A stretch of DNA of 63,996 bases, counting the filler, from Bonamia ostreae (Eukaryota): NCBI GenBank assembly GCA_040357525.1. It is 22 parts of 22 records of this genome, joined end to end, with 100 filler letters (N's around TTAATTAATTAA, not from the genome) between each part and the next. Parts side by side here need not be neighbours in the genome. Positions count along the whole stretch, not along the records: positions 38,178 to 41,003 come from JBDODL010000684.1; 21 more parts are not named here. One strand, given 5' to 3'. Shown here in pieces: positions 16,753 through 62,825 of the stretch. Numbering within the stretch: position 1 is the first letter of the stretch; every line of letters starts with the position of its first letter. A model generated the notes under the pieces. The model was not told where the DNA came from, did not search any database, and was given only the letters and a program-made list of their open reading frames with translations. A program made the translations under genes and the position numbers.

Positions 16753-17561
16753 ATGGACAATTCCAGAATTTTTATCGGCGGTAATTGGAAATCAAATTGT
16801 TCGCTTGAAAAAGCCGAAAAACTCACAAAAGAGCTTATTTCTGAACTTTCGAAAATGGACAAAAACATGAAAGAAAATAAATATGTGGTCATTTCCCCGC
16901 CATTTGTGTACTTGAAAGAGATCAACGAATTGGTCAAAAGAACAAAGTTCGCCAAATTCAATTTTGCTGTTTCTGCGCAGAATTGCAGTGAAACTGGGAA
17001 TGGAGCGTACACGGGAGAAATTTCAACTGAAATGTTAAAAAGCATTGACGTGAAATGGGTTATTGTTGGCCACTCTGAAAGAAGAAGTTTGTTTTGTGAG
17101 AATGACAATGTTTTTGTATTAAAATTGAGACAATCGCCCAAAAAATATCGTTGTGTATGAAAGAAAAGTTGTCAGTCATCGCGTGTATCGGCGAGACTTT
17201 GAAAGAACGCAAAAACGGGCAATTAGAAGAAATATTGAATAGACAATTAGAGGGAATTCAAAACAGTCAAAATTTAGACTGGTCTAAAATTGTTATTGCT
17301 TATGAACCCGTTTGGGCCATTGGAACGGGTGAGGTTGCAACACCGGAACAAGCTCAAAAAGTGCATTGCTTTATCCGGAAATGGTTAAATAAAAGGGTTT
17401 CCCCCGAGATTGCTAATACAATTAGGATCATTTACGGCGGTTAAAATTTTATCGTTTTTGTATTTCTTTTAATTATTTTTTGTTTTCGCAAAATTTATTT
17501 TTTTTCAAGTTATTTTTTGTTTTCGCAAAATTTATTTTTTTTTTAATTATTTTTTATTTTC
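16753..17561 (+). CDS. TPI1: Triosephosphate isomerase; 3' end truncated inside a repeat-filled intron
   Basis: FIGGNWK, GAYTGEIS, IVGHSERR, IACIGET, IAYEPVWAIGTG, IRIIYG. 20-nt intron at 17110-17129. Confidence 0.97.
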
Positions 17562-22715: not shown

Positions 22716-22949
22716 TTACAAATCCTTTATTTTGATGCTGGGCGGCAACGACTGTTTCAATTTTTCAGCTTTTTGGAAGTCGTTTACAACAAGTGTATAA
22801 AGATATCGAGAGCTTCTCACCTTAAACTTTATCCTCTTTTTCAGCTTTTTGATTTTTATGTGCTTCACATTAGTTCCGCGTGCTATTTTAAGGAATTCAC
22901 GGATGTCTTTAACTTCTTTGGGCTATTACAAAATGACTATTAAAACCAT
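22716..22949 (-). CDS. RPL38: 60S ribosomal protein L38 (eL38)
   Basis: ATG, then a 24-nt intron (22923-22946), then PKEVKDIREFLKIAR..KFKVRSSRYLYTLVVNDFQKAEKLKQSLPP. Missed by the ORF track. Confidence 0.97.
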
Positions 22950-27593: not shown

Positions 27594-28055
<462 letters not shown>

Positions 28056-30574: not shown

Positions 30575-32132
30575 ATGGGCGCTATTAATTCAAAATTATC
30601 TTGGGGGAAAGTGTTGAAAATATCAAAAGAAGATTTGGAAGAAACAAAATGTTGTTTTGGTGCAAATGGACATGATGGTTGTACAGAAAATTTCACAATA
30701 ACAAAAGTTATCAAAAAAACAAAGTTGATGTCGGTCTATAAAGGTTTAAACAAATAAAAATATCTTTGATGATGATAATATAAAAAATGTAAAATTAAAA
30801 ATTTTTAAGTCTGTTAAGTAATTTTTATATTTATGTTTTGAAATTTTCAATAATATTTTTTCGCAATTGTTGATTAAACAAAATTTTTCAATCAATAATA
30901 TTTCTTTATTCAAAGTTTTTCATTACTTTGACAACAATATTCAAATTAACTTCAATCTACATAAAGTTGTGAGCCAAAAAAATAAACATCTTGCTGTAAA
31001 AATTGTGAAAAAGGGCAAAAGAGACGAGTACACGGAAAATGAAATTGCAATCTTAGCCAAATTGAATGGACTTCATAAAAATATCGTAAAATGTAAACAT
31101 GTGTTTGAAACTAATAAATATTATGTTATTTTTGAAGAATTTCTTATATTTGACATAAGGTTTCTATAAAAATATTTAATCAAAGAAAATATCTAAAAAA
31201 AGAAAAAAGAATGACTTTAGATGCAGGCCGTTTTTAACGATATTTAAAATTTTTATTAAAAACACCAATTTTAATAAATATTTACAACTTTTTTGTAAAC
31301 TTTAAGCAAAATTTTTTGTTCTTTAAAATTTTTGTTATAGAAATACTGACACAACTTTTTGCTAACTTTTTGTTATAGAAACTAACAAAATTAAAAATAA
31401 AGGCGTATTTATTAGAAAAGTGACAAAAATTATTAGGTTTCTACACCAAAATAATATTGTTTACGGTGACCTAAAAACAGAAAATATTATGGTAGACGAA
31501 AAGGGAAATATCAGACTTGTTGATTTTGACCTGAGCATTAGGCTTGATCATAATTACACAGAAGATTTTCAACCACTTGGCACCGTCTATTATACGGGTT
31601 TGAAATTCTTCATCGTCAATTTTTATTTTTTTGTGTTAATTATAAGAAATCTTTTTATTCACAAACTGTTAAATTTAAAAATTAATCGAGAATAATAAAG
31701 CCCCCGAACAAGTTGTGGGTAAAACATGCAAACAATCAGATTGGTGGGGTTTGGGTTGTCTTTTATGTGAAATTTATATGTCACTAACAGCGAATGAAAT
31801 GCTATTTCTAAATAGATCTGAGTATGTAAATCAAGATGCTGCAATAATCGCATTACAACAATTGGACGAAGATTTAAAATTAGAAGATGAAGATCCCTTA
31901 ATGCAGCCGGCATTGCCATTTATAAATGAATGCGTTAAATTAAAAGTTGAAGATCGAATAGATTTAGATAAGGCTCAAAACTTGGGAGAAGTGGAATTCT
32001 TAAAAGATGTGACTGCTGCTCACAAAAATGAGTTTTAACATTTATTAACTAAACAGATTTGTTGATGAAATGAAGAGATTTGCAAATAATGTCATAAGAA
32101 AAGAGCAAAAGGCTTTTTTGATGCTTTATTAA
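30575..32132 (+). CDS. Divergent protein kinase (DFD motif), paralog 2, with an N-myristoylation-type start
   Basis: MGAINS start; LAVK, NEIAIL, YGDLKTEN, LVDFDLS, GTVYYT-APE, SDWWGLG. Confidence 0.87.
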
Positions 32133-35249: not shown

Positions 35250-36266
35250 AAAAATTTATTTTTTATTAAAATATTAACTCTTCAAAAATTTCTTTATCTT
35301 CATGTTCAGATTGTCTTAAATTTGGGTAATTTTTATATCGACTTAATCTATAAAATAGTGATTTGTCTTTGTTTTTGTTTACAAGTTCAAAAGATATTCC
35401 GTTTGTTGTTTCTCTTATTTTAGCGTGTTCCAAATCTTGCGAACTTTTAAAAAAATTGAGTTTCATCATCAAAGGAATGTTTTTGATCGACTTTCGTTTA
35501 AAAATCGACAAATTGTATTCGCTTAAACCGGTTAAGCTTTTTTCGATATCGAAAGATATTTTTTCGCCACGACGAAAATAATTTTGGAGAGAAAATTGCG
35601 ATCCCTTTTTTGTGAAAATTTGTTTCGTAATCAAAAACCNNNNNNNNNNTTGTGTTTATATCAGTGTTGAATTTTCCGGTGTATGAAAGTATTTTTTCGA
35701 TATCAAAAATTAGTTCGACTGGAATAGGTTCGTTTCCATCATATTTTTCTTTCGTTTTATTATACAGACCCAATTTTGGATTGATTTTGTTACAGATTCC
35801 AGTTTGGTCTAAATCCTTTTTTTTAATTTTTACAAACTTTCTAAAATAAACGAAAAAAATCAAAATTTGAAATTTATCACAAAACAAACAAAAAATCAAA
35901 ATTTGAAATTTATCACAAAACAAACAAAAAAATCAAAATTTGAAATTTATCGCAAAACAAACAAAAAATCAAAATTTGAAATTCATCGCAAAAAATCAAA
36001 ATTTGAAATTTATCGCAAAACGAAAAAAATCAAAATTTGAAATTCATCGCAAAAAAATTGCAAAACAAAAAAAGTTGAGAAAAAATTATAATAAAAACAT
36101 TTAATGGCGCTTCTATGATTTTCTGAAGTTGCTTGACGGTGTAGACTTTTCCTTTAATGTACGAAAGGGAATCGATTATTTCGTTAAAAGAAGGATTACT
36201 CTGTGTCGCCACAACATTTTTAATTATGACCTTTTCGTTTTCAATATCACTTATTTCCAAAGCCAT
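35250..36266 (-). CDS. Hypothetical spliced protein, divergently transcribed from dyskerin
   Basis: Three minus-strand open segments; the first intron is filled with a ~36-bp tandem repeat (35855-36060). Confidence 0.45.
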
Positions 36267-36368: not shown

Positions 36369-38077
36369 ATGTCAGAAGAATCCTCAGAAACTTCTACCAG
36401 CAACGAACAGAACAGTTCAGAAACAACGATAAAAACGGAAAAGCACCAAATCGCGTCTCAAACACCGTCAAATCCAATCGACACTTCTAAATGGCCTCTC
36501 CTGCTAAAAGTTTATAACTGCAATGTCAGAATTATGACAAACTTTTAGTAAAATCAACCAATTACACTCCCATTCCGATCGGTTACACCCCTTTGAAAAG
36601 ACCAATTCGCGAATACGTAAAGTTTCGACATTTTAACTCGCGAACTGTTTAGATACGGAATCGTAAATCTGGACAAACCAGCAAATCCTTCGTCGCACGA
36701 AGTGGTCGCTTGGATCAAAAAAATCCTCAAAGTCGAAAAAACAGGCCATTCCGGCACACTCGACCCGAAAGTGACCGGCAACTTGTTGGTCTGCATCGAC
36801 AGAGCTACAAGACTCGTCAAATCTCAGCAAAACGCCCCGAAGGAATATGTCTGTGTCATCAACTTGCACCAAAAGACAACTCGGAAAAAACTGGAATCCG
36901 CGCTTGAAACGCTTTCCGGTCCACTCTTCCAACGGCCGCCACTTATTTCCGCCGTGAAAAGGAGACTGCGAGTAAGAACTGTGTACAGCAATAAATTGAT
37001 CGACTATGACGAAGAAAAAGGACTCGCGTTGTTTCGTACCAGTTGCCAAGCCGGCACTTACATCAGAACACTTTGCGTTCATTTGGGGCTGGTTTTGGGA
37101 GTCGGCGCGCACATGGAAGAACTGAGGAGAGTCAAAACGGGTTGTATGGACAAAAGCAAAAATATGGTCACGATGCACGATTTGTTGGACGCGCAGTGGC
37201 TGTTGGATAACAAAAGTTTTTTAAAATTTGGAAAATTTGACTTTTCTAAAAAAATTAATTTTCGATTTAAATTTTTTTGGGGAAATTAATAATTTTTGAT
37301 TTTTTTTCGGGAAATTTAATAATTTTTGACTTTTTTCGATAAAATATAAATAATTTTTGACTATTTTTTTTGGGAAAATTAATAATTTTTGACTATTTTC
37401 GATAAAATATAAATAATTTTTGACTATTTTTTTTTCAGGAAAATTAATAATTTTTGACTATTTTTTTTTCGATAAAATATAAATAATTTTTCACTATTTT
37501 TTCGGGAAAATAAATAATTTTAGACCAACTTTTAAAACGTGAAGATGAAGAATCGTATTTGAGAAGAGTGATCCAACCATTAGAAGCACTATTGATAAAT
37601 TTTAAAAAACTGGTAGTTAAAGACACTTCTGTAAGCGCAGTTTGTCATGGAGCCAAATTGATGATGCCGGGACTGTTAAGATATTCAGACAAAATTGAAA
37701 TCGGAGACGAGCTCGTTTTGATTACTACAAAAGGAGAAGCGATTGCAATTGGAATAGCCCAAATGACAAGTCACCAAGTTTAAACTAATATTCGTTAAAA
37801 ATAAACGACATCAAAAAAATATTTATAAAAACGATTTTAACGAAAATTTTTATTTTACCAAATTTCAATAATTGAAAGATAAATGGATGCGATCACGGAG
37901 TGGTGGCAAAATTAAAAAGAGTAATAATGGAGAACGATTTGTATCCGCGAAGATGGGGACTTGGTCCAATGGCCTTAACAAAGAAAAGACTTATCACGGA
38001 AGGAAAATTAGACAAATATGGCCAATCCAATAACAACACTCCGTCTGATTGGAAAGACTTCTATCTTTCTCTCACAA
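36369..38077 (+). CDS. DKC1: Dyskerin / Cbf5 H/ACA pseudouridine synthase; 3' truncated
   Basis: [59 protein letters not shown] domain and YPRRWGLGP. Confidence 0.98.
37216..37544. repeat. Dyskerin intron expanded by alternating ~30-bp AATAATTTTTGACTATTTT tandem units
   Basis: About 9 related units between the exons ending LDNK and starting NEESYLRR. Confidence 0.85.
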
Positions 38078-38177: not shown

Positions 38178-38703
38178 CTTCTTAAGGAATGCTGCGCAGT
38201 TTTGGAAAGGTCTTCTGTTTGGTCGATCACGACAGCTTAAATTTGCACAGTAAACTTTTAAAGTTTTTGCTGTTTTTGCTTTTGAAAGAAGCGGTCGAAG
38301 CCATTTCTTTCAGCGTGTGTTGGACAATGTTCTTGTCGTAGTTGTCTAGACTTTGTAAGCCAAACCAGAGAGACTAGGATTCATCTGAATGTGGTGTATC
38401 GAGCTCAGAGTTTCGAATTCGATTGTTTTGGTTGGAGAGACTTTCAGAGTTTTGGTTTCCGCTTTGGTCTTACAGTTGGTGTTTTTACCTGCAGAGCCCC
38501 CTTTCCGTAGATTGCAGCCAAAAACGATTGGGTCAAACTAGTCTTTCCGGAACCAGACGGGCCGTAAAGGAGAATGTGTGGAACGTTTTCGGATTCGGAC
38601 TTGAAATACAATTTAAAACGAGCTTTTGCAAAATTTGCGAGGATTCTGGTTGTGTGGTAATGTCTCCCAAGCTCAATGGCTTGTAAATCTCTGTCCATAG
38701 CAT
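38178..38703 (-). CDS. RFC3: Replication factor C subunit 3 (38-kDa; yeast Rfc5), 5' part
   Basis: MLWTEIYKP, PHILLYGPSGSGKT, SSIHHIQMNPS, YDKNIVQHTLKEMA, LSKTAQHSLR. Four 20-nt introns. Confidence 0.92.
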
Positions 38704-39283
38704 TTTAAGCTTTGGATAAATTAAATTATAGGTTCAAATATTAAACTGCTTTTTTTGAATATTTGATTATCTTCAAAGTTTTGTGTTGGAGGCGTCAATT
38801 CTGTAATTTAAATTTTCTCTGAGATTTTTGTTAAATTCTGTAATTTAAATTCTCTCAGACTTTTCTTTATCAGATTGTGTACGGATTTTAATATTTAATT
38901 TAAATTCAGTAATTCAATAATATTAGATTATTGTCATTTCGAAAAAATGTCCGTTCCTTCATGTAAAAAGCGCAAAAGGAGAGTTTATTATCTATTTATA
39001 AAGAGAGTCGAAACAGAGAAAAATAAAGAGAGAGAGAGGTCGAAACGAAAAACATCTTCAAAAAAGAAGCCTAGTCCTGCCCAGAAAGGAGGAAATTAAA
39101 ATGGAGAGATTTGATTAAATTTTTATTGTCTAAAAACGGATCCTAAATTTAGTATCGTCGAAAAAAGTTTCAACAACAAAATCAAATTTGTTCATTAGAA
39201 TCAATTTAATAAACTTAAAAGTTTCAGATTAAATTTCAAAATTAAAAAATGTCTCTCGTAAAAGACACTTAACAAAAATAAAT

Positions 39284-40302
39284 TTACTCTTCCTTTTTGA
39301 TAACTTCCTCCTCCGCGTTCCCGGCGATTTTGAGCAGCACCACAGTCACGTTGTCGGCCGCGCCCCTGCTCATCACGGCGTGTTTCACTAGAACTAACCA
39401 AATCAACCTAGTCGCCTACTCACTTCGCGCGCACTCGGCTTTGAAAAGTCGAGCAGTTCTCCGTGTGCAAAGTCCACCGTCTCCTTGATCGCCATGTGAG
39501 ACCAGACTCCGTCGCAGCCCAAGAGCAGAAACGAGTCTCTTTTCGCGTCGAGCTGAACACGCGAGACGTAGGGGGTCGCTGAAACGCCGTACTGCTTTAG
39601 CGTAGGGTCTCCGAACGACCTCGAGACGGCCAATCTGCCCAAAACACGTCCTTCTTTCACGAAGCCTCCTCTCTTCTCGATGCGCCTCCTCTCCTTAACG
39701 AGTTAACTCATAAACTTCCAAAAAGTCGGGGCTGTGGTCTTTGCTGAGTCGCCCTATCTTGAGCGGCCTCTTCCCCCTTTCTCGCGTCAAGACGGCTTTA
39801 GAGTCGCCAACATTGGCGACCCAAGCCACGTCGTCGACGAGCAGACAGACGACCGCAGTGGACCCGTCGTTTTTGCCGCGCCGCTTCAGCTCTTCGAGGA
39901 GGTCCCTGTCCGTCTTCAAGAAGGCGTTCACCAGCACCTCTTTCACGAACTCGATGTGCTCTGGCGAGTTCGGATCCGCGTCTGACGAGAAGTCTTTGAC
40001 GGTGTGCAGTTCTTCGATCAGATTGTGGTGGAGGTGCGTCTCCAAGTATTGCGCTGATGCGCTGCCGCCGTGTCCGTCGTAAACGGCGAAGAAAGAGTAT
40101 CTAGTAATTAGTCTCGCAACGAGTGCTTTCTGAACGGAGAGTTGTTTTCCTCGTCGGAAAACTGTGAGAGCTTCTCGAAGATGACGAATCTGTCTTCGTT
40201 CTCGGCTTTGTTTCCTTTGTCGGAGAACGCGCCCGTCTCAATTGCGATGACCGGGTCTTTCGCTTTCAGCGGGAAAAAATTGGTTCGGGGCGCTTTATTC
40301 AT
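39284..40302 (-). CDS. Protein phosphatase 2C (PPM family)
   Basis: NEDR, FFAVYDGHGG, DGSTA, ANVGDS, LAVSRSFGD, LGCDGVW, ADNVTV. Introns of 20, 22 and 20 nt. Confidence 0.96.
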
Positions 40303-40400
40303 TTTATTGAACTTTAATAAGAGCACTTTAACAAGAACAGTTAAAGTGTTGCTTAGAGCTTATATATTATATAGATTAGTCTAATTGAAGATTTATCAGA

Positions 40401-41003
40401 ATGCGTCTGACAAAAAGTAATCAAAAGTTAGGCAGCTTGAATAAGCCGTCTATATCAAAGTCCGAAAAATACAAACAACTTGTCGGAGATGTCAAGAAGA
40501 TTTCAGAGGCAATAGACAACTACAGAAACCACAAAACAAATTACTTTGCGGGTTTACAATATCCATTTAAGCTTGCAAAAAGTGGCGGATGGTTGATTGT
40601 ACGATGAGGAAGATCAGCTCGTTCAAAGCCCACGAGAAAAAAATCTACGACTGCAAATTCTCTCACCACAATCCCGACTTAGTCATCTCCGTCGCCAACG
40701 ACAAAAAGTTAAAATATTGGAATGTGCACGATAAAAAGCTTTTAAAGGTTATTTAGCATATTATTCCAGCTTCAATCGTTTATATTCAGAAATTTTAATT
40801 AAAAATCAATTTTGTGGATGAACCGAATTAAATAATTAATGTTGTGAAAAGGAATTTGATTTGGAATCTCCGTGGATAACATCCTGCAATATTTCAGATG
40901 ACGAAGCACTAACTTGTGTCACCGATCTTCAGAAAAACTGCACAATTTACAATCTGCGCGAGGAAACCAAAGCTCCTGTCGAAATTCTTTCAGGCCACAA
41001 AGG
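40401..41003 (+). CDS. Divergent heterotrimeric G-protein beta-like WD40 protein, 5' part
   Basis: N-terminal helix, then FKAHEKKIYDCKF..VISVANDKKLKYWN..LESPWITSC..LQKNCTIYNL..LSGHKG, colinear with G-beta GHLAKIY..SASQDGKLIIWD..SSWVMTC..LDNICSIYNL..LAGHTG. Confidence 0.7.
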
Positions 41004-48653: not shown

Positions 48654-49767
48654 ATGTCGAATGAGACAAAACTTAAAACGGTATCGGCTTCTCTTTCACC
48701 TTCGGAATCGGCGACCGATAATTCCAATTGGGACAAATTCAAAGACAAAACATCAAATCTAACATTGCCCATCTCTTCTACTCCAAAACAACTAAATCTG
48801 TTGCTCGCAAAACTTCTCAACAATGTTCTTATTGTGAAAGCTTTTGACGCCATTTATGAAAGCTCTTGCGTTATTACATCGCAAACCACTATTTAAAGAC
48901 ACTATTTACAGAATCTCTGAATTAAAGACCGAGTCAGATTTTGCCTTTTACATCAATGGCTTTGAACTAGCTACCGACTTGGAAAAGTTTTTGGAACGCG
49001 AAAAAATCTCGGCCGAAGAACAGATAAACATCGTCTTCGACCAAAAGGAGCCACTTTGGGTTCGCCCGGTCACAAGATGTTCGTCTAGTCTCAGCGGCCA
49101 CGAGAACTCGATTTTAGTCGTTCGGTTTAGCCCCGATAGCAAATCCTTGGCTACCGGCGCCGGCGACAACACCGTGCGCCTTTGGGACTTGAACACCGAA
49201 ATGCCGCGTTTCAAACTAGAAGCGCACGGCGGTTGGGTTCAAGCGCTAGCATGGTCCCCCGATAGCTCTCTGCTGTCTTCCGGGTGCTACAGCGGAATTC
49301 TGTGTTTGTGGAACCCCTCGAACGGGGAGCTCATCCAAAAATTCAGCGCTCATTCGTTTTATTATTTTGGCAAATTTCATCTTTGAAAAAAGGGGCGCGA
49401 TAATGGACATCTCATGGCGTCCTTATCACCTCGACGAAAACTCGGACCGTTTCGTCAGTGCTTCTCAGGACGGAACTCTAAAAGTTTTGACATTTTATGA
49501 AGATTTGGCGAAAGGGAAATAAGGCTCGGTTATTAACGCTGAGCGGCCATTCGGCAGCGGCGACATCGGTTTGTTGGGGCGGGAAGGACTTCATTTATTC
49601 TGGGAGCAGAGACAAGACCGTTCGCGTCTGGAATTCGAGCGACGGCGCTCTGCGAAGTGTCTTGAACGGCCATTCGCATTGGGTGAACCATATAAGTCTT
49701 AGCACTGGCTACGCCATCCGATCCTCGTTTTATGAAAAAGGAGAATCTGTGGACGGAGAAAATCGAA
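48654..49767 (+). CDS. NLE1: Notchless/Rsa4 ribosome-assembly WD40 protein; 3' truncated
   Basis: STPKQLNLLLAKLL, VRPVTRCSSSLSGH, GAGDNTVRLWDLNTEMP, WRPYHL, VCWGG, GHSHWVNHISLST. Confidence 0.95.
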
Positions 49768-51119: not shown

Positions 51120-51458
51120 TTAGCGTTTAATGGTTAAGCGCGAAATTTTTAAATGTTATTTTTGTAATTTTCTAATTTAGCTTTTCTCTGTCCAAGATAT
51201 TGAAATAACTTTCTTATTTAATGTATTCGGAGCAAAATTACTTTGAAAGTTATAAAAACGAAAAATTATCTTCAATGGATAAAATGCAAAAACGACATAT
51301 CTTCGAAAACGAGACTTTTATTGACTAACAAGAACGGAGGGAATGGAAAGTGGTATTGACTAAAAACGAGAAATTTATCTGCAAATCTAATTCGATAAAT
51401 CTTATATAATATTGCGAAAAATATTCATAAATTTTTAGTATAAGTTAGCTTTAAAGGA

Positions 51459-52677
51459 ATGTATTCGACCAATACCTCAAACTTTTTGTAATTTAATTCT
51501 AAACAAAAGCGAGTCGAATCAAAAAGGAGAAATTTACGAATTGAGAAAAGATCTCAATTCTGTTGACCGAGGCATTATCAAAAATGCTGTAAAGAAAATC
51601 ATCGAAAGTTTTTACTTCATAATTAAAAAGTGATGTCTTTAGGAGAAGATTTATCACAACTTTTCCCGGATGTCATCAAAAGCTTATCGACAAAAGATCT
51701 AGAACTCAAAGTTTTGTTAAATTTTAAATCTACTAATGTCTTGCATTCAAATAATTTGAATATTCGGGATACTTAATTAAAACCAGTTAATTCAAAAATG
51801 GCCAAAACAAAAATCATTTCAATTATTTAAAAATGGCAAAAATTGTAAATAATCGCCAAAATAATAAACGAAAATCAGTTCAATTATCAAAATGGCCAAA
51901 ATTTAAAAACAAAAATCAGTTCAATTATAAATAATGGCCAAAATAAAAAAGAAATTAGTTTATCTGTACACAATCCATTACGCCCACAAACAACCAGAAA
52001 AAGCCATTTTGGTCGTAAACACATTCCAAAAAGACGCCAAATCGCATCCGAACCCTTTGATGCGCGCTCTGGCCATTCGCACAATGGGCTGCATCAACGT
52101 CGAAAAAATCACAGAACACCTCTGTGATCCTCTTTCCGACGCCCTCAGCGACTCCGATCCGTACGGTTCTTCTATTCAACGATCCAATTTTAAACAGTGC
52201 GCAAAACCGCGGTCATTTGCGTTGCGAAACTATTCAAAATCAACGAAGAAATGGTCATCGAAAAGGGGTTTCTAGACAGGTTGCATCTCTGTCTCTCCGA
52301 CTCCAATCCGATGGTGGTCTCCAACGCCGTCGCGGCGATCGAAAATATCGCCAAAAAACGGCCTTCGATTCTGTCCAAAATAAGTCCTTCGAATTGTCGT
52401 CAATTGGTGAGCGCCATTAACGAGTGCACAGAATGGGGCCAAGTGTACATTCTGGAAATTTTGGCGATTTGCTTCAACAAGATTTCGGATCCGGTCTTCG
52501 TATTGGAGAGAATAGCACCGAGACTGTCGCATTCAAACCCGGCAGTTGTTTTGTCGGCGGTCAAACTTGTGACGATTTTGGCGAAAGGACTGAAAAATAA
52601 AGAAAATGTCTTTTTGGAGAAGATAAGGCCGTCTTTGATCACTTTATTATGTTCGAAGTCTGGTTTATTTTTACCGA
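51459..52677 (+). CDS. AP-1/AP-2 beta-adaptin; 3' truncated
   Basis: [82 protein letters not shown]. Confidence 0.97.
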
Positions 52678-62583: not shown

Positions 62584-62825
62584 TTAATGGATAAATTTTA
62601 TTTTCTAAACTTAAACAATATTGATATGACGTTCTGCTAAATGTTTTCTAGTCAGTTGATGCCCAACATTAAATTTTTCTGTGTAACAACAACAAATTTT
62701 TTCGTTATTGTCAAACTTTTTTNNNNNNNNNNNNNNNNNNNNNNNNNNNNNNNNNNNNNNNNNNNNNNNNNNNNNNNNNNNNNNNNNNNNNNNNNNNNNN
62801 NNNNNNNNNNNNNNNNNNNNNNAAT

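Follow-up and report, generated by a model that had tools for sequence, protein, structure and literature searches.

Short GT-AG introns with a GTT(T) donor in conserved genes of the oyster parasite Bonamia ostreae

Flat oysters are parasitised by Bonamia ostreae, which belongs to the haplosporidians (Haplosporidia, Ascetosporea, Rhizaria). A stretch of 63,996 bases from its draft assembly, which is called the window here, raises the question of whether the segments of about 20 nt that interrupt conserved genes such as RFC3 and PP2C are real introns and, if they are, which signals could mark them for removal. The answer given below is that they are probably ordinary spliceosomal GT-AG introns, most of which would have shrunk to near the physical minimum, with a lineage-specific GTT(T) signal.

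The window is made of 22 parts of the assembly, from 2,850 down to 2,508 bases long, which are joined by 44 N, a 12-base linker with stops in all frames and another 44 N, the first join being at 2851-2950 and the others following every ~2.93 kb. Because these linkers are artificial, genes on either side of one are not genomic neighbours. Extra N runs are found at 35640-35649 (N10) and 62723-62822 (N100). The draft genome has 12.24 Mb in 9,705 scaffolds, with an N50 of 1,417 bp and 33.3% G+C, and its annotation, made by funannotate with published transcript reads, has a mean of 2 introns per mRNA (PMC11069148). The main text of the genome paper calls the introns "canonical" and says nothing further of them (PMC11069148).

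Continuity of conserved proteins across short segments

In total, 29 introns are placed across 11 genes of the window (Table 1). Candidates were enumerated between GT and AG ends only, and within this limit all 29 introns begin with GT and finish with AG. The first tier comprises 23 introns, which are based on a public model, a hidden Markov model (HMM) of the family, profile continuity or RNA, while the six introns of the second tier are based on frame logic and on the reading of conserved motifs. Blastp alignments with the best homologues have no gap column within 6 residues of any short-intron junction. Under the family HMMs, each of the 14 introns of GDP-L-fucose synthase, adaptin and dyskerin either ranks first among the open GT..AG options or has no competitor, and eight introns are spliced likewise in transcript-trained public gene models. 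Comparison with homologous sequences thus confirms the segments as real introns, whose exact removal restores a collinear and gapless conserved protein.

The RFC3/Rfc5-type clamp-loader gene, which is cut by the end of its contig, has four introns of exactly 20 nt. The spliced frame is open for 148 aa and identical (148/148) to MHBO_002126, a partial hypothetical protein of Bonamia ostreae at NCBI, so the public annotation already uses these four introns. In a PDB search, residues 2-148 of MHBO_002126 align with residues 3-149 of human RFC3 (6vvo_E) without a gap and with an E of 6e-27, and the next-best alignment is with yeast Rfc5. A word search for RFC3 homologues gives only the protein itself and 11 chance P-loop matches at E>2.

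The PP2C phosphatase gene of the same contig has introns of 20, 22 and 20 nt. The middle junction is supported by two registers: on the Pfam PP2C profile, exon 2 covers 35-143 and adds 3 residues before exon 3 starts at 147, and on the PPM1A chain 1a6q_A, exon 2 reaches 166 and adds 4 residues before exon 3 starts at 171. As the continuity is exact in both Pfam and PDB, the 22-nt length of this intron is exact, and a second placement of the same length (39707-39686, GTTAAC start), which lies 8 bases away, fits equally well. The outer introns, which are placed by frame logic, have open alternatives of 23 and 35 nt (intron 1) and of 14 nt (intron 3). Exons 1 and 4 searched alone have no Pfam or PDB match.

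GDP-L-fucose synthase has seven introns, of which the public model P0121 (GDP-L-fucose synthase [Bonamia ostreae], in NCBI and UniRef; 100% identity to window 2007-2138) uses four, those of 22, 240, 29 and 20 nt. This model has 143 aa of an expected ~320 aa and starts 3' of a frame break near 1519-1527. It also retains the 19-nt intron 2401-2419 and stops two residues on, so it is devoid of the conserved 51-aa C-terminal exon; the family HMM scores the version lacking this intron at 281.5 and the next-ranked option at 232.5. The frame break itself is a 1-base frame change in an A run of the plus strand, between ...NFWLK and KNVNINNN, which has no GT..AG solution and is either a draft homopolymer error or a real frameshift.

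Profiles place the junctions of other genes in the same way. The triosephosphate isomerase (TIM) junction is exact in the Pfam TIM profile, which is matched at 2-102 plus 1 residue and then at 104-207. The adaptin gene matches the Pfam Adaptin_N profile at 59-129 and then at 130-276. In dyskerin/Cbf5, junctions 1 and 2 have a single open GT..AG solution each and junctions 1, 2 and 4 are gapless; a dyskerin exon has 70-74% identity to proteins of algae, fungi and plants, and the named matches of the best 120 include no animal. The RPL38 intron adjoins the ATG, and the match to the Pfam Ribosomal_L38e profile (1-67) begins at the first residue past it. Two protein kinase paralogues on separate contigs have longer, phase-1 introns at the same codon, just 5' of the APE motif, both with a GTTTG start; the Pfam Pkinase match ends at 163 before the intron 10393-10470 and resumes at 175 after 8 unaligned residues. 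The shared codon indicates that this intron predates the duplication, and neither copy has come down to 20 nt.

A preliminary description of this DNA, made from the sequence alone, had already placed the four 20-nt introns of RFC3, introns of 20, 22 and 20 nt in PP2C, introns of 19-29 nt in GDP-L-fucose synthase and the 24-nt intron of RPL38. These placements stand: the RFC3 segments are GT..AG at those positions, the PP2C introns of these lengths are confirmed by position, the five short introns of GDP-L-fucose synthase (22, 22, 29, 20 and 19 nt) are recovered, with the 79- and 240-nt introns as additions, and so is that of RPL38.

Sequencing reads provide one case of splicing in RNA. Among 24 listed sequencing runs, eight contain part of contig 14 (38178-41003), which carries RFC3, PP2C and a neighbouring WD40 gene. 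The run X4, regarded as RNA by guess, covers the WD40 gene and much of PP2C with word depths that run into thousands, while run X8 gives no record on this stretch. In a 1,220-nt contig of X4, 104 nt of the WD40 gene are skipped by a joint from 40743 to 40848, which has GT..AG ends when the cut is moved by +4 and corresponds to the intron 40748-40851. The depth of X4 is 36 in the bin of this intron and 3,000-6,900 in its flanks. Such a GT..AG skip marks X4 as derived from transcripts and shows a GTT donor in use. An exon of the same gene has an extra A after position 40636 in one X4 contig (depth 867 of 6,213), which could be a homopolymer length variant or an error. The run X5 has 38257-38407 unspliced at depth 2, which is uninformative if X5 is DNA. 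The DNA-like run X1 contains the whole of 38204-41003, from which it departs by just 7 substitutions and nowhere by 20 nt.

The 20-nt segments might be assembly errors, pseudogene insertions or translational recoding sites, and the fragmented draft, the 1-base frame break in GDP-L-fucose synthase and the lack of spliced RNA for the short segments in X4 would agree with this. It is nevertheless hardly credible, because all 21 short segments are GT..AG, ten of them are equal in length and their removal leaves gapless alignments with homologues of distant eukaryotes. In addition, the independent run X1 agrees with the assembly, and the public annotation, which was built with transcript reads (PMC11069148), splices the same sites.

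Table 1. Genes, exons and introns placed in the window; strand and basis are given where available.
Feature	Position	Strand	Details
RFC3/Rfc5-type clamp-loader gene, 5' part	38178-38703	-	ATG at 38703-38701; cut by contig end at 38178
RFC3 exons	38703-38620, 38599-38489, 38468-38366, 38345-38256, 38235-38178	-	spliced model
RFC3 intron 1	38600-38619	-	20 nt, GTTTTA start, AAG end, phase 0
RFC3 intron 2	38469-38488	-	20 nt, GTAAAA start, AAG end, phase 0; A at +3, as in just two other donors
RFC3 intron 3	38346-38365	-	20 nt, GTTTGG start, TAG end, phase 1
RFC3 intron 4	38236-38255	-	20 nt, GTTTAC start, AAG end, phase 1
PP2C phosphatase gene	39284-40302	-	318 aa spliced; Pfam PP2C on exons 2 and 3; PDB PP2C chains
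PP2C exons	40302-40121, 40100-39716, 39693-39408, 39387-39284 (including stop)	-	spliced model
PP2C intron 1	40101-40120	-	20 nt, GTTGCG start, TAG end, contains CTAAT; frame logic, second tier
PP2C intron 2	39694-39715	-	22 nt, GTTTAT start, AAG end; continuity in Pfam and in 1a6q_A and 6ak7_A
PP2C intron 3	39388-39407	-	20 nt, GTTGAT start, TAG end; frame logic, second tier
WD40 gene, first junction	40552-40571	+	20 nt; least certain intron of the set
WD40 gene intron	40748-40851	+	104 nt, GTTATT start, AAG end; skipped in RNA
GDP-L-fucose synthase gene	1165-2575	+	HMM of 49 homologues; 7 introns
GDP-L-fucose synthase introns 1-4	1326-1404 (79 nt), 1573-1594 (22 nt), 1675-1696 (22 nt), 1766-2005 (240 nt)	+	top-scoring open GT..AG
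GDP-L-fucose synthase introns 5-7	2140-2168 (29 nt), 2254-2273 (20 nt), 2401-2419 (19 nt)	+	top-scoring open GT..AG
Triosephosphate isomerase intron	17110-17129	+	20 nt, GTTTTT start, GAG end; Pfam continuity
Dyskerin/Cbf5 gene	36372-38076	+	HMM of 60 homologues; 4 introns, all with GTT donors
Dyskerin/Cbf5 introns	36510-36529 (20 nt), 36622-36652 (31 nt), 37216-37544 (329 nt), 37778-37878 (101 nt)	+	HMM
Adaptin beta-type gene, N-terminal part	51439-52676	+	HMM of 31 homologues; 3 introns, all GTT
Adaptin introns	51608-51630 (23 nt), 51711-51951 (241 nt), 52166-52197 (32 nt)	+	HMM; junctions gapless
RPL38 intron	22923-22946	-	24 nt, directly 3' of ATG; GTTTTA start, TAG end, in-frame stops
Notchless-like WD40 gene introns	49356-49392 (37 nt), 49484-49502 (19 nt)	+	GTTTT starts; frame logic and WD40 repeat register, second tier
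Protein kinase intron	10393-10470	+	78 nt, phase 1, GTTTGT start
Protein kinase paralogue intron	31598-31700	+	103 nt, phase 1, GTTTGA start

Lengths and splice signals of the introns

The introns form a short and a long class. The 21 short introns are 19-37 nt long, with two of 19 nt, ten of 20 nt, three of 22 nt and one each of 23, 24, 29, 31, 32 and 37 nt, so 17 of them are within 19-24 nt and the narrow mode, below 30 nt, is at 20 nt. The eight long introns have 78, 79, 101, 103, 104, 240, 241 and 329 nt. Among the short introns a length divisible by 3 occurs just once, in RPL38 (24 nt, in-frame stops), a deficit that may be an artefact, since introns of 3n length without an in-frame stop are invisible to the method. 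A deficit of 3n introns in Paramecium has been linked to nonsense-mediated decay.

GTT(T) replaces the usual GTRAGT as the consensus of the donor, and the acceptor is mostly AAG. Position +3 of the donor is T in 26/29 introns (20/23 in the first tier) and A in the other three, position +4 is T in 21/29, and both are T, giving GTTT, in 20/29. Positions +5 to +8 have no conservation (+5 G in 3/29, +6 T in 10/29, +7 T in 10/29), and on the exon side of the donor A prevails at -3 and -2 and a purine is found at -1. The acceptors are AAG (19/29), TAG (6/29), CAG (3/29) and GAG (1/29), and the excess of AAG has a p of 0.01 when compared with AAG/NAG = 0.425. The long introns have the same ends, with a GTT donor in 7/8 and an AAG acceptor in 8/8.

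A rival origin of the T at +3 would be the base composition of AT-rich introns. In the window 44% of the GTN trinucleotides are GTT, and intron interiors are 38% T and 77% A+T, which gives this idea some ground. The 26/29 introns are far above both levels, with a binomial p of 3.8e-7 against the GTT/GTN fraction of 0.44 and of 1e-8 against the interior T of 0.38, the latter being a check set beforehand. A is as common in the interiors (0.40) as T, yet it is found at +3 only three times. Real introns of 19-24 nt have T at +3 in 15/17 cases, whereas unused GT..AG pairs of the same lengths and gene spans have it in 45/131 (34%; Fisher p 2.6e-5). Composition is therefore a very improbable source of the donor signal.

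At the 3' end no long pyrimidine tract is found: pyrimidines account for a fraction of 0.507 at -10..-4 and, in long introns, for 0.485 at -20..-4, with interiors at 0.50. A branch-like YTAA is present in 7/21 short introns. The four features of the preliminary description, which are a T at +3 in the clear majority of donors, 3' ends that are often AAG or TAG, a YTAA in only some introns and the missing polypyrimidine tract, are all borne out by these counts. The ten introns of 20 nt have A at positions 12, 13 and 14 in 6, 8 and 6 cases, T at position 15 in 8 and a pyrimidine at position 17 in all ten, a layout that hints at a branch A and a three-base pyrimidine patch (n=10, AT-rich). Introns have 23% G+C compared with 39% for the gene spans.

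Outside the introns, the window has other particular segments. The spacer between RFC3 and PP2C has a 40-base AT-rich element (39097-39136), which is single copy in the window with up to 6 substitutions allowed. In run X1 it is the only stretch common to four other contigs, with a depth of 96 compared with ~7, and it has loose ends at both edges in X1 and X4, so it looks like a dispersed short genomic repeat. In the same spacer, 38830-38936 is formed by near-repeats of a ~45-base unit and may vary in length among isolates; one low-depth X1 contig has 11 other letters in place of 105 bases. On another contig of higher G+C (0.37), an open frame of 153 aa at 27594-28052 of the plus strand consists of G-X-Y repeats of the collagen type, all perfect (Pfam Collagen, E 2.5e-18). 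Such a frame is unexpected in a rhizarian; it could stem from host contamination of the assembly, from gene transfer or from a surface protein of the parasite. Weak Pfam matches to Sushi and PDZ are also found in the window. A metazoan parasite, dicyemid or myxozoan, to which these matches and the literature on short introns had pointed, is rejected as the source: such animals have GTa donors and rapidly evolving proteins, the dyskerin exon resembles algal, fungal and plant sequences, and NCBI assigns two matching proteins to Bonamia ostreae.

Recognition of the splice sites

The preliminary description had suggested a distinct splicing code, in which introns would be defined mainly by their length and the splice-site sequence would have little weight. 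The concentration of lengths speaks for it, as 10/21 short introns have exactly 20 nt and 17/21 have 19-24 nt, and so does the weak conservation past +4, with YTAA in only 7/21. Against it, 8/29 introns are 78-329 nt long and use the same donor and acceptor (GTT 7/8, AAG 8/8), often in the same gene as introns of 20 nt, and one of them (40748-40851) is spliced in RNA. The preference at +3 and +4 is moreover a strong sequence signal, as the comparison of 15/17 real introns with 45/131 decoys indicates. Since short and long introns of the same genes share their donor and acceptor preferences, the ends and not the length carry the signal, and definition by length is improbable. The term distinct code was also too strong, for donors with U at +3 and +4 are known in Entamoeba and introns of 16-17 nt in mikrocytids. 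What the window contains is ordinary GT-AG splicing in a form particular to this lineage, which is not established as a new code.

In the favoured reading of ordinary GT-AG introns, the signal would consist of an exon AAR followed by GTTT, a weak A patch ~7-9 nt from the intron end, 2-3 pyrimidines and NAG, mostly AAG, and the major spliceosome would remove all introns, short and long. A GUUU donor, conserved from +1 to +4 only, would pair poorly with the canonical 5' end of U1, because U at +3 and +4 would face two pseudouridines. The same donor may fit the AGA of the U6 ACAGA box by U:A, U.G and U:A pairs. The 5' site is thus probably recognised either by a U1 whose 5' end has changed, as it has in Entamoeba, or chiefly when U6 pairs with it, and a loss of U1 is also conceivable, since mikrocytids yielded only U2, U4 and U6. 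As there is no pyrimidine tract and the acceptors are mostly AAG, the AG taken as 3' site is probably the first suitable one at a fixed short distance past the branch A. The mode at 20 nt may represent a floor under deletion pressure in a reduced parasite genome, which would make length a consequence and not a recognition signal; the same argument has been made for mikrocytids (PMC10245619).

The more specific proposal that U1 recognises the GTT donors through a co-evolved, ACAAAC-like 5' end, as in Entamoeba, is a possible but rather doubtful form of this mechanism. Both +3 and +4 are U in 20/29 donors, which thus depart from GUAAGU at the two positions where Entamoeba donors do, and the ACAAAC U1 is present in all five Entamoeba species examined (bioRxiv 10.1101/2022.06.08.495308). 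Positions +5 and +6 have no conservation here (+5 G in 3/29, +6 T in 10/29), however, and GUUUGU is found in 87.9-89.5% of Entamoeba introns. Most lineages with atypical donors retain a canonical U1 (bioRxiv 10.1101/2022.06.08.495308), and no U1 is among the three small nuclear RNAs (snRNAs) found in the related mikrocytids (PMC10245619). A search of the 64-kb window with Rfam (gathering score or E<=1) gives no snRNA, with one chance miRNA match, and no tRNA is found.

Several points weigh against the reading of the short segments as shrunken spliceosomal introns with a GTT(T) signal. The sample is small, with 29 introns of 11 genes, of GT..AG type only and six of them on frame logic. Among the X4 records listed, 7 of 97, none has a joint, a deletion or a loose end at a short intron, including the three of PP2C, and RFC3 has no X4 cover. 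Scans of the window by sequence only, which joined open frames over GT..AG segments of 10-60 nt, give no length peak and, at 18-23 nt, no excess over control dinucleotide pairs. A scan filtered by codon bias for 18-23 nt gives 11 joins for GT-AG compared with 0, 8, 7, 11, 3, 8 and 5 for seven control dinucleotide pairs. Both scans are underpowered, with 64 kb and exons of ~30 aa, and as they yield no length peak the proof of the introns rests on homology. The A and pyrimidine patches come from 10 sequences in which many positions were inspected without correction, and every statement on U1 and U6 is an inference.

Relation to other short-intron systems

One of the two nearest comparisons is with the mikrocytids (Mikrocytos mackini and Paramikrocytos canceri), which also belong to Ascetosporea and have many ultra-short introns of narrow size in housekeeping genes of a reduced genome. 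Their introns are of 16 bp in 217/224 cases and of 17 bp in 7/224, with a highly conserved sequence, and no more than 17-19 spliceosomal proteins, with U2, U4 and U6, were identified in them (PMC10245619). Bonamia differs by its mode of 20 nt, its range of 19-37 nt, the additional class of 78-329 nt and the little conservation past GTTT and NAG. More generally, intron numbers and sizes are stated to be drastically reduced in Ascetosporea (PMC13746701, 2026).

Entamoeba, the other of the two, resembles Bonamia in its short AT-rich introns and in a donor whose +3 and +4, the positions that face the canonical U1 pseudouridines, are both U. The U1 pairing site is ACAAAC instead of ACUUAC in five Entamoeba species, the donors are GUUUGN in 96.9-98.5%, with +5 G, +6 U and +7 U conserved, and Roy and Bowser propose extra pairing of GUUUGU donors with the U6 ACAGA box (bioRxiv 10.1101/2022.06.08.495308). 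Entamoeba is an unrelated and intron-poor member of Amoebozoa, and its conserved +5 to +7 contrast with the unconserved ones of Bonamia, which shares the +3/+4 U of the Entamoeba-type donor and not its +5 G and +6 U.

Chlorarachniophyte nucleomorphs, which have a rhizarian host, contain very many introns of 18-21 bp, a range of 4 bases around 19-20 nt (PMC10245619, PMC2222250). They are relics of a green-algal nucleus, with tiny spacers and short introns only, whereas Bonamia has spacers of hundreds of bases (e.g. 38704-39283) and long introns side by side with short ones. Myxobolid myxozoans and Dicyema have median introns of 22-27 bp, signals of a few bases and no real polypyrimidine tract, and they retain U2 and U2AF (PMC13644364). 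The introns of Dicyema acuticephalum have a value of 26.2 +/- 1.9. In contrast to Bonamia, these organisms are animals and their donor is reduced to GTa, with the opposite base at +3 (PMC13644364). Heterotrich ciliates such as Stentor (15-16 nt) are similar in having introns at the lower limit with a conventional spliceosome (PMC10245619, PMC13644364); they differ by a single intron size class and a free-living giant cell. Unlike the ultra-short-intron systems, Bonamia does not have all its introns short, 8/29 being of 78-329 nt.

No description of short introns or GTT donors in Bonamia was found in the accessible literature, a scope that leaves aside older haplosporidian actin-gene papers, the supplements of the genome paper and the mikrocytid logo. 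Within the literature searched, the introns are already in public models and the GTT(T) donor and AAG acceptor consensus appears to be unreported. Bonamia is a combination of two known oddities in a new lineage, distinct by having no conservation past +4, AAG acceptors and two length classes. Tentatively, B. ostreae, and perhaps haplosporidians generally, could be a second independent lineage in which the donor moved to GUUU, through a rewritten U1 5' end or through U6 ACAGA pairing that replaces U1, together with AAG acceptors without a U2AF65-type tract, which would allow introns of both 19-24 and 80-330 nt.

An unrelated second lineage with U at +3 and +4, beside the mikrocytids with their reduced spliceosome, would be an independent test of the co-evolution of snRNAs and splice sites. 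Introns of 20 nt and of 100-300 nt with the same ends in single genes would help to distinguish the requirements of the spliceosome from the remnants of deletion pressure. For this oyster pathogen of commercial importance and its relatives, missed short introns may distort gene models, orthology calls and inferences of gene loss.

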